A stretch of DNA of 32,788 nucleotides from a phage. Both the position numbers and the translations under genes were made by a program. Shown piece after piece: positions 24,001 to 32,788 of this stretch. Each line of letters opens with the position of its first letter. The stretch's first letter is position 1. A model generated the notes under the pieces. That model did not search any database. It was given only the letters and a program-made list of their open reading frames with translations, and was not told the origin of the DNA. The stretch lies in assembly GCA_029942545.1 (NCBI GenBank), contig GCA_029942545.1_4114.3. One strand, written 5' to 3'.

Positions 24001-24129
24001 CTAGAGTACAGGAATGTTCACGTTTAATCAAGAACGTAGCAGTACTGATATGTCACTAAGTAGGCAGAGGAAGTCTGCCGTACTTTTTAGTTTCCAAGCT
24101 CCTTTTCCATTTTTCAAATTACATCAAAT

Positions 24130-24164
24130 GTAATCAAAAGTAATCACGCAATGATTAGTACTGA
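24130..24164. repeat. GTAATCA repeats including an inverted pair
   Basis: GTAATCAAAAGTAATCACGCAATGATTAG: two direct copies plus inverted TAATCA/TGATTA around CGCAA. Confidence 0.55.
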
Positions 24165-24423
24165 ATTATTACTTTCACCTTAATTACAATTACCCTTTTA
24201 CCCGTCGGGGTAAAATTCCATTACCCCTTGAGGCTCCAGCAAAAAGTTGGTTAGTACTCCATCCTAAATCTCGATCCTAAAAATTTTGGAGTACCTATGA
24301 AATAAAAGTTGGATCTTCGAAAGTTGAAATTTACGTTGGGACGTTTATGATTTGTGGGATATAATGATGTTTGTAGACGGGTAGTTCTCAAGAATATCAG
24401 TACTGAATAATGAAAGAAAGTTA

Positions 24424-24451
24424 TTGACATTATGATTCAGTACTGTATAAT
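24424..24451 (+). promoter_or_regulatory. strong sigma70-like promoter in ORF-free region
   Basis: TTGACA (24424-24429), 16 nt containing CAGTACTG, TATAAT (24446-24451); no ORF of meaningful length downstream. Confidence 0.55.
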
Positions 24452-24457
24452 GTTCTA

Positions 24458-24656
24458 CATAGAGAGATGAGTTGCTGCCAACAATTCATTTACTCTACCT
24501 CCTGTCGTGAGACAGTACAGAAAAGATAGTTCCTCCTGTGGTGGTACATCTTTTTGAACCTCATATGAAAATCGTAATAACAGTACTGATATTAACAGAA
24601 TGGTGTCAGTACTGATTTTAATCTAAAGCATTATGCCACCAGCTTGTGCTGGTGGA
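24458..24656 (+). ncRNA. candidate small non-coding RNA (about 200 nt)
   Basis: Downstream of promoter 24424-24451; longest ORF about 20 aa; two CCTCCTGT(C/G)GTG copies (anti-SD-like CCUCCU); ends at 8-bp hairpin CCACCAGC-ttgt-GCTGGTGG (24636-24655) without a clear U-tract. Confidence 0.25.
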
Positions 24657-24796
24657 TTCCCTCTAACAGTATTCAGTACTACATGATAGTCTTCATCCTC
24701 CTAGGGTAACATAGTGAGGGCTATGATGGCAGTACTGAATACTCCTTTCACAAGATAGATCTATGGTATAGTACTGACGGATTTTGGGCGTAGTTA

Positions 24797-24968
24797 CCCT
24801 GGATGGATTTTGGACGTAGATATGTCTAGCCCTCCAGAAGTCTGGAAGTAAAGATGGCTATCCATCTAGACGGCTAGACGGCTAGATTTCTGGATGGCTG
24901 GATGGCTAGACGTTTGGACGGCTAAACGGCTAGATGGTTACACGTCTGGAAGTATAGACGGCTAAATC
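24797..24968. repeat. iteron-like array of short direct repeats
   Basis: Repeated 7-11 bp words: ACGGCTA(G/A)A x5, TGGATGG x3, TTGGACG x2, GTCTGGAAGTA x2, mostly in one orientation at roughly 9-11 bp spacing. Confidence 0.6.
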
Positions 24969-25130
24969 AAAATTTTATTTTGTTTTTTCCAATAGTTCCC
25001 CTACCGCGTGGGGATAGTTTCCCCGCAGTATCTGGAGTTAGATTTTTCTGAATCTGGAATCATTATCTTATAAACTGGGGGCAATGTCAACGGCCTGGAC
25101 GGATATTTTTAAAAATTTTTTCAGTACTGA

Positions 25131-25182
25131 ATTTTGGGCGTAACTATGCACCCGGTGGGCTTGAGTCTTTCTCGACTTGATG
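25131..25182 (+). repeat. ~50-nt repeated element, copy A
   Basis: ATTTTGGGCGTAACTATGCACCCGGTGGGCTTGAGTCTTTCTCGACTTGATG; shares ATTTTGGGCGTAA, GCACCC and CTTTCTCG..T.ATG blocks with copies at 25347 and 28955. Confidence 0.5.
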
Positions 25183-25245
25183 AAAATATTATAGCAGTAC
25201 TGAAAAAATAAAGCAATACCCTAAACGCAAAAAGTTTTAATTAAT

Positions 25246-25274
25246 TTGCTTGCCATCCTGGGGCGTACTATGAT
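25246..25274 (+). promoter_or_regulatory. possible promoter (TTGCTT -35-like, TATGAT -10)
   Basis: TTGCTT, 17 nt, TATGAT, upstream of repeated element copy B; weak match. Confidence 0.25.
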
Positions 25275-25346
25275 ACTATTATTCAGTACTGAGAAAGTGC
25301 TATGACCTGCTAAGGTGCGGGAGTGTATCCTTTTTAAATTATATGA

Positions 25347-25399
25347 ATTTTGGGCGTAATTCCGCACCCCCCAGGGGTATCCGCTTTCTCGCGTCTATG
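25347..25399 (+). repeat. ~50-nt repeated element, copy B
   Basis: ATTTTGGGCGTAATTCCGCACCCCCCAGGGGTATCCGCTTTCTCGCGTCTATG. Confidence 0.5.
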
Positions 25400-25657
25400 T
25401 AGTAATTATACGCTTTTTCGGTGCTGAGTCAATAGCTAAAAACAAAATAATTGAAAATAATTTAACGCGTTTAAACGGCCCGTAAAGCCCTGGTTAGCTG
25501 GTGGCGGTGCAAATGTATAGCTTAGGTGTATTAATGCGTTAGAAAGCGGCTGAGGCCGTTTTATGGGGTGTATAGTAGTGATTTGGTTGATTCAGTACTG
25601 AAAGATAGTTCCCCTATATAGAAAGAAAACTATTTTAAAAGTATTTGTAGAAAGTAC

Positions 25658-25720
25658 TTGCAAAGTATTGGGAAAGGTGTAGAATGTTTTACATCGAGAC
25701 GGGGGATACGCTCCCGACTC
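25658..25720 (+). promoter_or_regulatory. early-type promoter plus downstream stem-loop (PeSL-like)
   Basis: AGTACTTGCAA, 16 nt, TAGAAT, GTTTTACATC, then GGGGGATACGCTCCC hairpin; gene 25743 follows. Confidence 0.55.
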
Positions 25721-25742
25721 ACTTTTAAAAGAGATTAAAACG

Positions 25743-31116: not shown

Positions 31117-31135
31117 AATTATTATCACAGTACTA

Positions 31136-31164
31136 TTGACATAGTTTGATAGTACTGGCATAAT
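31136..31164 (+). promoter_or_regulatory. sigma70-like promoter
   Basis: TTGACA (31136-31141), 17 nt containing AGTACTGG, CATAAT (31159-31164). Confidence 0.5.
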
Positions 31165-31197
31165 AGATTTTATCAAGACAACTAAGAGGAAATTAAA

Positions 31198-31542
31198 ATG
31201 GCTAACATCAACACTATCTCAGCACAAAATATCAACCTGTCTTCTGTTGAAGTTGTACATATTGCCGCTCGGCGTTGGTTCCAGGCTTCATATGGTAACA
31301 CTTATTTCTCTTTAAGTGTAGACGTAGAAATTGATGGTAATTTTATTGAAGTAGTAAACGTGCCGTTCCAATATGGATACGGGGATCACTTTGACACGGT
31401 AGCAATGGAAGAATTTAGCAAGGTTATTAATATGGAAGGTAAAGAGTTTTTACGCGGTTCTTATCTTTCTCGTTTTTGCCGTGACAATAATATCACTGTT
31501 TACAGTTCGGTAACTGATGTTAAACGCAAAAAAGATCTTTAA
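31198..31542 (+). CDS. hypothetical protein (114 aa)
   Basis: ORF track; AGAGGA SD. Confidence 0.7.
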   Translation: MANINTISAQNINLSSVEVVHIAARRWFQASYGNTYFSLSVDVEIDGNFIEVVNVPFQYGYGDHFDTVAMEEFSKVINMEGKEFLRGSYLSRFCRDNNITVYSSVTDVKRKKDL

Positions 31543-31622
31543 TTAGCTTTACTTTATGCAGATACTTTGATATAGTGTCTGCATAGGGGAAAGAAATTAA
31601 ATCAAATTAAGAGGATAGTATA

Positions 31623-31892
31623 ATGAAAAATATCAGTACTTTAATCGATGCAGGTACTCATGTTCGTCGGTCTATGGTTGCAACCAGTACTACAAAACAA
31701 GTAGCAAGCGGTTATCTTGTATTTGTACACGAAGGAAAGCTATTGGAACGTTCAATCAATTTTGATGTTAAAAACAATTGCCGTTTTATTATTTTTAAGC
31801 GTGAACAATATAAAATTGATTTACCAGCAAAGCCCATTAGCGGGGCGTACAACGTGCAATCATTGTTTGAGCGTCAACCATACACCTATTAA
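31623..31892 (+). CDS. hypothetical protein (89 aa)
   Basis: ORF track; AGAGGA SD; upstream inverted repeat ATGCAGA-N15-TCTGCAT. Confidence 0.7.
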   Translation: MKNISTLIDAGTHVRRSMVATSTTKQVASGYLVFVHEGKLLERSINFDVKNNCRFIIFKREQYKIDLPAKPISGAYNVQSLFERQPYTY

Positions 31893-31943
31893 TCAAAACA
31901 TCGTTAGCGGTCGATTTAGGCCGCTTATATTGGGGATTATACC

Positions 31944-32114
31944 ATGAACGTTAATCAAGTACTGAATGAAGTTGAAAGCATCATTAAACCAATGAAACGT
32001 ATTGATGCTGTTCCTACACCGGAAGAATGCCGCCTTTATGAGCGTTACAGTGTGGAACAAGCCCAGGAAATGGCCCGTATCCGTCCGGTTGCCAGTACTG
32101 ATAAGGCGGCGTAA
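31944..32114 (+). CDS. possible small protein (56 aa)
   Basis: Not in ORF track; ATG about 31944 (MNVNQVLNEV...), stop TAA about 32112-32114, 1 nt before the next ATG; GC-rich codons (CCG, GCG, CGT) like neighbouring genes. Confidence 0.45.
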   Translation: MNVNQVLNEVESIIKPMKRIDAVPTPEECRLYERYSVEQAQEMARIRPVASTDKAA

Positions 32115-32115
32115 T

Positions 32116-32322
32116 ATGCTTACTGTACAGGATAAGATCGACATCTTAAAGGTTAATATGTATGTGATTGATGCAGATCCTGAAAAAGTATTTGCATACG
32201 ATGATTCTAATCGTAGTCCTTTTTATTGTAGTCATGTAGTTGGATACGTGCCGTTAGCGTATGTTATCGAAAGAGTGGTTGATTCAGCTTATAAACATTA
32301 CTTAGAAAGTACTTGCAATTAG
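32116..32322 (+). CDS. hypothetical protein (68 aa)
   Basis: ORF track 32002..32322; start moved to ATG 32116 (MLTVQDKIDIL) directly after the stop of the upstream small ORF. Confidence 0.6.
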   Translation: MLTVQDKIDILKVNMYVIDADPEKVFAYDDSNRSPFYCSHVVGYVPLAYVIERVVDSAYKHYLESTCN

Positions 32323-32370
32323 TTTTTAGTACTGTATAATTGTTTACATCGAGAGCGGGAATAGTTCCCG
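32313..32370 (+). promoter_or_regulatory. early-type promoter plus stem-loop (PeSL-like)
   Basis: TTGCAA (32313-32318), 16 nt containing TAGTACTG, TATAAT (32335-32340), hairpin GCGGGAATAGTTCCCGC identical to the one at 28043. Confidence 0.6.
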
Positions 32371-32390
32371 CCTATAACGAGGAAAGAATA

Positions 32391-32633
32391 ATGGAAACTA
32401 TTTTAATTAAAGATACCGCACTTACGGTTACTTATGATAATGATTGCATTGTCCCTGGTACTGAATACGGCGAACGTGTACCCGTCCAGGTTGAGATTGA
32501 TACTACATACATCGACAAGGCCGACCAGTGTATCACTATTGTGATTGGTGAATATCGTTTTCTGCCAGAAGAGATCCAAAAATGGCAGTATATGATTGAC
32601 CGTGCGAAATTAGTCGCACAAAGTTTAAAATAA
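32391..32633 (+). CDS. hypothetical protein (80 aa)
   Basis: ORF track 32340..32633; start moved to ATG 32391 (METILIKD) after CGAGGA SD. Confidence 0.7.
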   Translation: METILIKDTALTVTYDNDCIVPGTEYGERVPVQVEIDTTYIDKADQCITIVIGEYRFLPEEIQKWQYMIDRAKLVAQSLK

Positions 32634-32636
32634 TAC

Positions 32637-32695
32637 TTGCAATTAGTTTTCAGTACTGTATAATTGTTTACATAGAGGGGGGGAATGATTCTCCC
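32637..32695 (+). promoter_or_regulatory. early-type promoter plus stem-loop (PeSL-like)
   Basis: TTGCAA, 16 nt containing CAGTACTG, TATAAT, hairpin GGGGGGGAATGATTCTCCCC. Confidence 0.6.
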
Positions 32696-32714
32696 CGATA
32701 CTAGGAGAATCAAA

Positions 32715-32788
32715 ATGAAACAATACAACGCTCGGTTTGATGTTACTATCGGCAACGGCAAAGGTCAATTTTCTTTCAGTACTCGTAG
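32715..32788 (+). CDS. hypothetical protein, 3' end beyond window
   Basis: ATG about 32715 (MKQYNARFDVTIGNGKGQF...) after TAGGAG SD downstream of promoter/stem-loop; open to window end. Confidence 0.5.
   Translation, partial: MKQYNARFDVTIGNGKGQFSFSTR

Follow-up and report, generated by a model that had tools for sequence, protein, structure and literature searches.

AGTACT, an apparently undescribed genome-wide iterated palindrome of RaK2-like jumbo phages and candidate protein recognition site

Introduction

Among the closest described counterparts of the element analysed here is HIP1 of cyanobacteria (GCGATCGC), a short perfect palindrome found in many-fold excess in coding as well as non-coding DNA, which behaves as a property of the lineage while its copies turn over and for which no function has been settled. 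Here we report on the hexamer AGTACT in a 32,788-nucleotide stretch of phage DNA (contig GCA_029942545.1_4114.3 of GenBank assembly GCA_029942545.1; this whole stretch is called the window below) and in related jumbo phages. Like HIP1, AGTACT is a short palindrome whose genome-wide excess is not due to repeats, and whose abundance is conserved while its positions turn over. It differs from HIP1 in its sequence and length (6 bp rather than 8 bp), in residing in virus rather than cellular genomes, in also occupying fixed positions in promoters, and in having no evident matching methyltransferase.

Other genome-wide words resemble AGTACT in part. Chi and the DNA uptake words (DNA uptake sequences, DUS, and uptake signal sequences, USS) are short enriched words that separate self from foreign DNA, and pairs of USS double as terminator stems, as AGTACT does in one gene array of the window; they are, however, asymmetric polar words with known readers (RecBCD and an uptake receptor), whereas AGTACT is palindromic and has no known reader. 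The stoperators of cluster A mycobacteriophages such as L5, reportedly described by Brown et al. in 1997, are likewise many copies of one protein-binding site across a phage genome, including an early promoter. They are asymmetric 13-bp words, ~25-30 per genome, oriented with transcription and mostly intergenic, whereas AGTACT is a symmetric 6-mer with ~900 copies that lie mostly in genes. Being a perfect palindrome with symmetric flanks, AGTACT is not an asymmetric word of the kind formed by the polar genome signals (Chi, FtsK-orienting polar sequences (KOPS), stoperators). On a local scale, small open reading frames (ORFs) follow one another in the window's early region, each after a conserved sigma-70-type promoter and a stem-loop, an arrangement that resembles the promoter-early stem-loop (PeSL) cassettes of T4-type phages, which flank variable early genes in the same way (PMC2839356, PMC4122927). 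PeSLs are nevertheless composite units of ~50-70 bp for which no genome-wide hexamer is reported, while AGTACT is one component of such cassettes and lies mostly outside them.

Phages normally purge short palindromes, and the phage studied here does so to an extreme degree; AGTACT nonetheless stands at ten to twenty times expectation across genera, at a cost in protein sequence. That a palindrome is kept despite the purge and the cost points to a strong, so far unrecognised sequence-specific interaction. We estimate at roughly 0.5 the probability that AGTACT, with TCAGTACTGA as its fullest form, is a positively selected double-stranded DNA recognition site for a sequence-specific, probably homodimeric, candidate protein conserved in the RaK2/121Q/GAP32 jumbo phages.

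Enrichment of AGTACT in the window and in the 121Q genome

Megablast identified the window as DNA of an Asteriusvirus jumbo coliphage (121Q, PBECO4, SP27, G17), with 95-98% identity to positions 112.7-143 kb of 121Q, and the whole 121Q genome (348 kb) was analysed alongside it as a reference. An initial annotation of the window had reported a recurrent 10-bp palindrome, TCAGTACTGA, in the intergenic DNA of 24040-32760. The six positions that it gave (24397, 24606, 25121, 25283, 25592 and 27700) are all correct, and we could add a seventh at 27316, giving 7 perfect copies where 0.03 are expected, a number reached in none of 100 shuffles. The many near-variants that it mentioned were also recovered: 34 matches with at most one mismatch compared to 1.27 expected, spread from 3.4 to 32.6 kb.

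The actual unit, though, is the hexamer AGTACT and not an intergenic 10-mer. With 143 copies in the window compared to 12.9 expected, AGTACT is the top 6-mer by z-score and the sole enriched 6-bp palindrome (11-fold, the runner-up reaching 2.1-fold). Its copies span 573 to 32778, the whole 121Q genome and the whole clade, so that the proposed confinement to 24040-32760 does not hold. The bases around the hexamer are only weakly constrained (C at −1 in 67/142 and G at +1 in 65/142, together with T at −3 and A at +3), which makes TCAGTACTGA the fullest form of a 6-bp core. The sites in question are:

573..32783, no strand: all 143 AGTACT, the first at 573 and the last at 32778; 135/142 in distinct sequence contexts, i.e. 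not repeats
24397..24406, no strand: perfect TCAGTACTGA at the left genome end, within the non-coding leader, with a TTGACA/TATAAT promoter 18 bp downstream
24606..24615, no strand: perfect TCAGTACTGA in the leader, making an incidental long inverted repeat with CAGTACTG at 24581
25121..25130, no strand: perfect TCAGTACTGA in the leader, with the repeated word ATTTTGGGCGTA right after it
25283..25292, no strand: perfect TCAGTACTGA in the leader
25592..25601, no strand: perfect TCAGTACTGA in the leader, with the first AGTACTTGCAA promoter 56 bp downstream
27316..27325, no strand: perfect TCAGTACTGA within the 209-aa ORF 27069-27698, absent from the initial annotation
27700..27737, + strand: TCAGTACTGAATCA, immediately 3' of the stop of ORF 27069-27698, then the hairpin GGCGGGGAATGGTTCCCGCC, then the ribosome-binding site of the next gene

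The same picture was found genome-wide. The 121Q genome carries 903 AGTACT compared to 99.8 expected; no 10-kb bin is without the motif (11-65 copies each), and its density peaks at 130-150 kb, the early region that is the counterpart of the originally annotated stretch. As many as 871 of the 903 sites have unique contexts (±15 bp), which rules out a repeat family or a mobile element as their origin. AGTACT is again the sole enriched 6-bp palindrome, whereas 24 other palindromic hexamers are wholly absent (up to 47 expected each). Structural and replication genes are enriched 4-8-fold, and the homing-endonuclease genes, inspected as a check on recent acquisition, contain between 0 and 5 AGTACT per gene.

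The separate k-mer statistics for coding and non-coding DNA that had been suggested along with the 10-mer were run, and the frequencies are not at the level expected from base composition. An intergenic bias does exist, but it is just 2-3-fold and most sites are coding. A crude gene model assigns 95 AGTACT of the window to coding DNA (3.4/kb) and 47 to non-coding DNA (9.3/kb), a bias of ~3-fold superimposed on an 8-13-fold enrichment inside genes; within 24040-32760 there are 17 coding sites compared to 1.3 expected and 36 non-coding sites compared to 1.5 expected. Of the sites in 121Q, coding DNA holds 759, compared to 88.7 expected, and non-coding DNA 136, compared to 9.6 expected; 84% of the 903 lie inside genes. 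Close pairs of sites (≤30 bp) number 67 in 121Q, compared to 67.5 under a Poisson model, so that an arrangement in hairpin-forming pairs can be rejected as a general property of AGTACT. The gaps between sites are more even than random in 3 of 4 regions tested (coefficient of variation 0.72-0.83, P = 0.002-0.01).

Several other compositional oddities accompany the motif. In the window, 26 GC-containing palindromic hexamers are absent; GCGC does not occur at all (0 vs 23 expected in the window, 0 vs 178 expected in 121Q), and GGCC-containing words are strongly depleted. On the 121Q record (NC_025447.1), positions 161,803-169,314 form a 7,511-bp run without any ACT on the + strand; gaps between ACT average 52 bp in the genome, and runs longer than 25 times the mean are seen for no other trinucleotide. 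The run covers ~19 co-oriented small ORFs, its AGT frequency is normal, and AGTACT is replaced in it by 41 AGTACA. Its presence in SP27 as well excludes an error of sequencing, and the pattern resembles a strand-specific avoidance, either of ACU in a set of transcripts or of ACT in one of the DNA strands. A further AGTACT desert, 4.1 kb long (121Q 155,502-159,569), lies over an array of ~70-aa ORFs but, unlike the first, does contain ACT.

Selection acting on duplex DNA

Within the genes of 121Q, AGTACT uses all three codon phases (368, 150 and 241 sites), and in each of them the coding sequence is distorted. Ser-Thr dipeptides number 701 compared to 491 expected, while the reverse dipeptide Thr-Ser numbers 472, and 368 of the Ser-Thr dipeptides are encoded by AGT-ACT where 103 would be expected. 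Val-Leu dipeptides (795 vs 571 expected) are similarly accompanied by an excess of GTA-CTG codon pairs (133 vs 22), and GTA-CTN is preceded by an A-ending codon in 72% of the cases, compared to a background of 33%. In the remaining phase, TAC makes up 80% of Tyr codons within xAG-TAY-Txx, compared to 27% in the background. When coding sites are oriented by the sense strand, C stands at −1 in 329/761 and G at +1 in 364/761, meaning that the flanks are symmetric relative to transcription. Specificity falls off sharply, since the one-off neighbours of AGTACT are enriched only 0.6-2.2-fold compared to 9-fold for AGTACT itself, with none of them strongly depleted.

The use of three phases, the dipeptide distortion, the symmetric flanks and the sharp fall-off together point to strict recognition of a symmetric duplex-DNA site and speak against three alternatives, namely an RNA signal, a codon effect and a drive by deamination and repair. 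AGTACT is thus a word of duplex DNA, symmetric and strictly defined, which positive selection has strongly favoured for a long time throughout the phage clade; it is kept at about one copy per 230-390 bp genome-wide at the expense of codon choice and even of protein sequence. The same strict palindrome, symmetric flanks and sharp fall-off favour, among the readings that the initial annotation had suggested, a dimeric DNA-binding protein site or a nuclease/modification target, but not the third, a processing signal.

Under that third idea, an endoribonuclease of the phage or the host would process or degrade transcripts at AGUACU, much as T4 RegB does at GGAG. It could draw on the high density of sites in early transcripts and just 3' of stop codons, on the major capsid gene, which has none in its 1176 bp, and on the 7.5-kb block of 121Q without sense-strand ACT, evidence that this phage is under some constraint specific to one strand. 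Yet the sense-oriented flanks are mirror-symmetric and complementary one-off words are about equally frequent (AGTACC 119 and GGTACT 124; AGTACG 70 and CGTACT 73). Moreover, sites also occupy promoter positions 5' of the inferred transcription start, and it is hard to picture decay sites being selected strongly enough to alter proteins. We consider an RNA signal highly improbable.

Conservation among RaK2-like phages

The turnover of sites was followed in an alignment of 24 kb of structural genes from 121Q, vB_Ec-M-J (85% identity) and A4 (79% identity). AGTACT was retained in 59-79% of the cases compared to 30-41% for all hexamers, i.e. about twice as well. Even so, just 20 of 68 sites are common to the three Asteriusvirus genomes, 29 are lineage-specific, and gains from one-off precursors are frequent.

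Across more distant phages (RaK2, GAP32, fHe-Yen9-04, Munch, Serratia phage BF and XbC2), AGTACT is enriched ~6-30-fold overall, with values of 6-21-fold in at least five genera. Counts in the samples examined were:

RaK2: 119 AGTACT, 12 expected
GAP32: 181 AGTACT, 8.7 expected
fHe-Yen9-04: 158 AGTACT, 8.9 expected
Munch: 145 AGTACT, 9.2 expected
XbC2 (annotated as a Xanthomonas phage): 72 AGTACT, 11.2 expected
Serratia phage BF and two uncultivated contigs: AGTACT enriched 12-25-fold
PA5oct (a Pseudomonas relative): 1 AGTACT, 7.8 expected, not enriched
T4: 3 AGTACT, 4.9 expected, not enriched
E. coli K-12 (one 50-kb stretch): 3 AGTACT, 4.8 expected, not enriched

The trait hence belongs to the enterobacterial RaK2-like clade and is neither general in T4-superfamily phages nor a feature of the host; its density is ~2.6/kb in the phage and ~0.06/kb in the single 50-kb E. 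coli sample. No description of the abundance of AGTACT was found in the literature searched, including none that pairs AGTACT with jumbo phages. The genome papers of RaK2, CBB, Sharanji, fEgEco12 and phAPEC6 make no mention of the motif, and the top-listed papers on AGTACT and bacteriophages concern other things. A hexamer palindrome iterated genome-wide and clade-wide therefore appears to be so far undescribed.

A drive by biased repair has been proposed for other iterated palindromes, and AGTACT might likewise have no function and simply result from biased mutation or repair (a conversion bias of the very-short-patch type) or from a codon or dipeptide preference. The frequent gains from one-off precursors would be in line with this. 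A codon preference, however, does not account for an enrichment that extends over all three phases and non-coding DNA, and a very-short-patch-like drive is unsupported, as no precursor neighbour is strongly depleted. The doubled retention of existing sites, the fixed promoter positions described below and the persistence of the enrichment across genera with <30% nucleotide identity (PMC13070987, Table 2) also argue against it. We regard the absence of function as improbable.

Fixed positions in predicted early promoters

Position 1 of phage fEgEco12, whose termini were determined by PhageTerm and restriction mapping and whose direct terminal repeats measure 20,993 bp (PMC13070987), aligns at position 24059 of the window with 94% identity over 1.58 kb. 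The start of the initially annotated stretch (24040) thus coincides with the physical left end of the genome, and the window contains the point at which the unique genome ends on its right and the ~21-kb direct terminal repeat begins. The repeat opens with a leader that contains 14 AGTACT, compared to 0.54 expected, and 5 of the 7 perfect 10-mers; the genes to its right are the early genes of the terminal repeat.

Promoters were predicted as consensus matches (−35 and −10 hexamers with a 16-18-bp spacer), yielding 13 sigma-70-type promoters on the + strand of 24.4-32.7 kb and 14 promoter-like sites in the whole window. In 12 of these 14 AGTACT occupies a fixed position. At the −35 flank (8/14, offset −5) its last T is the first T of the −35 hexamer (AGTACTTGCAA), and at the −10 flank (5/14, offset −7) it stands one base upstream of the −10 hexamer (AGTACTGTATAAT). 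Both sites are present, 20 bp apart, in two promoters (28588/28608; 32308/32328), and a third, at 32637, has the one-off AATACT at its −35 flank. The leader and the promoters are:

24059..25742, + strand: non-coding leader of 1.7 kb, starting at the physical left terminus, which is the start of the ~21-kb direct terminal repeat
24424..24451, + strand: sigma-70-type promoter TTGACA-16-TATAAT, AGTACT (24439) abutting the −10
25653..25685, + strand: early promoter AGTACTTGCAA-16-TAGAAT, last T of AGTACT shared with the first T of the −35
26115..26147, + strand: early promoter AGTACTTGCAA..TATAAT, with the 5' hairpin GGGGAATAGTTCCCC downstream
26904..26936, + strand: early promoter, AGTACT at the −35 flank
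27996..28028, + strand: early promoter, AGTACT at the −35 flank
28588..28620, + strand: dual-site early promoter AGTACTTGCAA-N9-AGTACTGTATAAT, AGTACT at 28588 and 28608
29056..29088, + strand: early promoter AGTACTTGATA..TATAAT, a consensus match
30597..30624, + strand: promoter TTGACA-16-TATAAT, AGTACT (30612) abutting the −10
30891..30923, + strand: early promoter, AGTACT at the −35 flank
32308..32340, + strand: dual-site early promoter, AGTACT at 32308 and 32328
32637..32664, + strand: promoter with AATACT (one-off) at the −35 flank and AGTACT (32652) at the −10 flank

The −5 and −7 offsets recur in 121Q, GAP32 and Munch, and the dual-site architecture is also present in RaK2, Serratia phage BF, 121Q and two uncultivated viral contigs. 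Two earlier descriptions need narrowing. AGTACT-core hairpins do form in the terminators of the RCC1-like array, but the pairs ~20 bp apart in the early region flank promoters at −35/−10 and are not terminators. Similarly, a signal at regulatory junctions is evident at the fixed promoter positions and after stop codons, but this framing is too narrow for a word with 84% of its 121Q copies inside genes.

Directly downstream of early promoters lie GGGGAAnnGTTCCCC hairpins (GGGGAA-nn-GTTCCCC stem-loops, at 26162, 27717, 28043, 28633, 30936, 32355 and 32677). As in PeSL cassettes, promoter and stem-loop are repeated between small variable ORFs, and the gene content between cassettes differs among relatives, as seen from patchy alignment coverage. 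The stem-loops lie at the 5' ends of the predicted early transcripts.

These arrangements might suggest that AGTACT is a local regulatory building block of promoter/stem-loop cassettes and terminator stems, spread by duplication or recombination of the cassettes. Its fixed positions, the conserved GGGGAAnnGTTCCCC hairpins that follow the promoters as in T4-type PeSLs (PMC2839356, PMC4122927), the use of the motif as stem arms in the array terminators and the density peak in the early region all agree with such a role. It would, however, account for <20% of sites: 759 of the 903 in 121Q are intragenic and in all three codon phases, nearly all contexts are unique, and structural and replication genes are enriched too. 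The intragenic sites, the codon and dipeptide distortion and the unique contexts refute this as a complete explanation, which we hold to be very unlikely; it applies to the intergenic subset only.

Candidate readers of AGTACT

The main rival to a bound recognition site is a methylation target comparable to HIP1, whereby a phage methyltransferase would modify AGTACT and so switch early promoters in step with replication, or protect the sole tolerated palindrome. Strict hexamer specificity with a sharp fall-off does resemble an enzyme of the restriction-modification type. AGTACT is the target of ScaI/Eco255I, and in a genome that purges other palindromes, 900 copies of such a Type II target would need shielding. 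AGTACT thus shares its hexamer and the sharpness of its specificity with a restriction-modification target, but it differs in that phages normally avoid such targets, whereas AGTACT is enriched 9-20-fold, and in that no cognate enzyme gene was found. For a Type II restriction-modification system, no candidate was found beyond the methyltransferases gp417 and gp91, and no binding protein, methylase or nuclease could be assigned to AGTACT in this analysis, nucleases not having been examined systematically.

The first of the two, gp417, contains the single amino-methyltransferase motif (NPPY) of 121Q. It is a Dam-family N6-adenine methyltransferase (PF05869) that is conserved in the clade, with 63% identity in RaK2 and a syntenic copy in fHe-Yen9-04, and this would favour methylation. 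PF05869, however, which is the T1/Stx-phage Dam type and typically GATC-specific, is widespread in T1-like and Stx phages that are without the AGTACT motif. The family thus holds no information on specificity, and gp417 was set aside as a guide to the reader; no solved structural relative of it was found. The second, gp91 (121Q 62,483-63,343), is a C5 cytosine methyltransferase that aligns over its full length to mammalian DNMT3 catalytic domains (E = 3e-23) and matches DNMT3 better than the bacterial M.HaeIII or M.HhaI. Since it resembles DNMT3-type CpG enzymes and AGTACT contains no CpG, it is an unlikely partner. Its likeness to DNMT3 fits the extensive methylation, including CpG, reported by the RaK2 authors (PMC3622015), and would be irrelevant to AGTACT.

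Extensive methylation in RaK2 and the methylated motifs contained in cyanobacterial HIP1 (PMC6604393, PMC6105098) lend the idea of modification some general backing. In the case of AGTACT, though, neither the Dam-family enzyme nor the DNMT3-like C5 enzyme of 121Q is linked to the motif by family, and the neighbours that deamination would involve are not depleted (AGTATT 1.42-fold, AATACT 1.05-fold). We consider methylation as the primary role to be doubtful, if the most serious of the competing explanations.

A host protein of Enterobacterales was also considered, for example the nucleoid-occlusion factor SlmA. The SlmA site, GTGAGTACTCAC, has a central hexamer identical to AGTACT, and all cultured carriers of the motif but one infect Enterobacterales, while the Pseudomonas relative PA5oct is without it. 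SlmA also requires G1, T2 and a purine at position 3 on both sides of AGYRCT (PMC3020112), and these outer bases are absent in the phage: compatible 12-mers number 0/903 in 121Q and 0/143 in the window, compatible half-flanks number 20 compared to ~54 by chance, and the SlmA-type flank GAGTACTC is the rarest of 16 flank combinations (3/903). The SlmA site was thus rejected. In addition, T4, which grows on the same host, is not enriched, whereas XbC2, annotated as a Xanthomonas phage, is. A host-protein site therefore has a slim chance of being correct.

A possible role for dense AGTACT sites

If AGTACT is a site for a conserved dimeric protein, its dense copies would mark phage DNA relative to that of the host, and the mark might be used by a process specific to phage DNA, such as the coating or protection of the palindrome-purged genome or the recruitment of a factor. 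The early promoters of the terminal repeat would carry two sites on the same helical face, AGTACT followed by TGCAA (at about −40 to −35) and AGTACT followed by G and TATAAT (at about −19 to −14). Occupancy there may compete with sigma-70 RNA polymerase, leading to the shut-off or another modulation of early transcription.

We tentatively extend this to a viral 'self-word' system, a possibility for which we would not claim even odds: genomes of the clade would be filled with AGTACT to let a dedicated phage protein distinguish phage from host DNA, and this single act of recognition would both protect or organise an unmodified, palindrome-purged genome and silence the terminal repeat's early promoters. 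Judged by a single host sample, the density of AGTACT in the phage exceeds that in the host at least 15-fold. If true, a highly-iterated-palindrome system would for the first time be known from a virus, in this case with a tractable reader, for which the 10-bp TCAGTACTGA is a possible bait and TCAGATCTGA its control counterpart.

Several points weigh against a recognition site of this kind. Pfam scans of 30 window ORFs returned no DNA-binding domain, and a binding protein was not found; a core of strictly 6 bp whose specificity drops so steeply is seen more typically in enzymes of the restriction/modification type than in transcription factors. Promoter positions rest on consensus matches and not on mapped transcription starts, and promoter regulation does not by itself explain ~760 intragenic sites. 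The comparison with the host is based on one 50-kb sample of E. coli. Finally, 41 AGTACA stand in for the palindrome in one 7.5-kb block of 121Q, implying that a half-site is enough or that the requirement may be set aside.

The clade consists of well-sampled jumbo phages that are candidates for therapy. AGTACT may offer a handle on how phages without a nucleus-like shell or hypermodified bases organise and protect 350 kb of DNA, and on the timing of early transcription from the terminal repeat. It is also a simple metagenome marker for the clade and is relevant to the engineering or recoding of these phages.

Terminators and other features of the window

To the left of the terminal repeat, the window contains small + strand genes followed by an array of RCC1-like genes (4.4-19.9 kb, − strand). 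The array (4449-19906) consists of ~10 tandem RCC1-like (beta-propeller) paralogues of 376-406 aa plus truncated copies, split by a repeated ~71-bp spacer that holds a terminator, TATTAAATATAGTATAATG and a ribosome-binding site. After seven of these genes the spacer has the form of an intrinsic terminator, GCCAGTACT..AGTACTGGC followed by the T-run ATTTCTTTTTG, with stems of GCCAGTAC(T)/(A)GTACTGGC; whole-spacer folds are predicted at −16 to −21 kcal/mol, and at −5.0 for a weaker copy (13015-13067). AGTACT-core stems had been reported for these terminators, and they are present: GCCAGTACT..AGTACTGGC with a T-run at 9365 and 13853, and AGTACT with a near-copy in five further spacers. A third context, besides promoters and array terminators, is AGTACTGAATCA right after stop codons, followed by a terminator (29442, 30168) or a 5' hairpin (27702).

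9365..9382, − strand: terminator stem CCAGTACT-TG-AGTACTGG, then a T-run, separating two RCC1-like paralogues; the 72-nt spacer as a whole is predicted to fold at −19.2 kcal/mol
13853..13869, − strand: terminator stem CCAGTACT-C-AGTACTGG, then a T-run, between RCC1-like paralogues
8034-8141, 11777-11847, 13015-13067, 15066-15136 and 17497-17567, − strand: five other array spacers, with arms like GCCAGTAC/GTACTGGC; one perfect AGTACT plus a near-copy
29442..29476, + strand: AGTACTGAATCA plus the intrinsic terminator AGCCCAC..GTGGGCT and a T-run, after the stop of ORF 29139-29438
30168..30202, + strand: AGTACTGAATCA plus the AGCCCAC..GTGGGCT terminator, after ORF 29663-30160

To the right of the array follow a run of 60-75-aa ORFs (20-23.8 kb), an ORF-free stretch of 1.7 kb and small early-type genes. 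The run (19991-23795, + strand) comprises ~17 back-to-back ORFs of 59-81 aa, many with ATGA-type overlaps and interrupted by one 223-aa ORF, and looks like a paralogous small-protein array. Scans of the window for tRNAs and against Rfam gave no matches. In the 121Q record, a tRNA-Ser is annotated at 75,464-75,555 with the unusual anticodon ACT, predicted to pair with AGU; among the Ser codons of 121Q, AGT is used most, in part owing to the motif.

The terminal leader region (23900-25400) is rich in short direct repeats, including copies of GTAATCA at 23910-24150, TGATCAGTAGTGATCAGTAGTGAGTAC at 23975-24002, tandem units of GGCTAGACGG/GGATGGCT at 24850-24960 and four copies of ATTTTGGGCGTA (24781, 24801, 25131, 25348). 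In the leader, Chi (GCTGGTGG) and its complement form the inverted pair CCACCAGCttgtGCTGGTGG (24636-24655), and further Chi sites lie at 25497, 30289, 13126 and 13384. Chi counts on the two strands are 3 + 3 in the window, compared to 0.13 and 0.27 expected, and 18 + 11 in 121Q, compared to 1.5 and 1.0, clustered in the early region. It is possible that this excess shields the entering DNA end from RecBCD.

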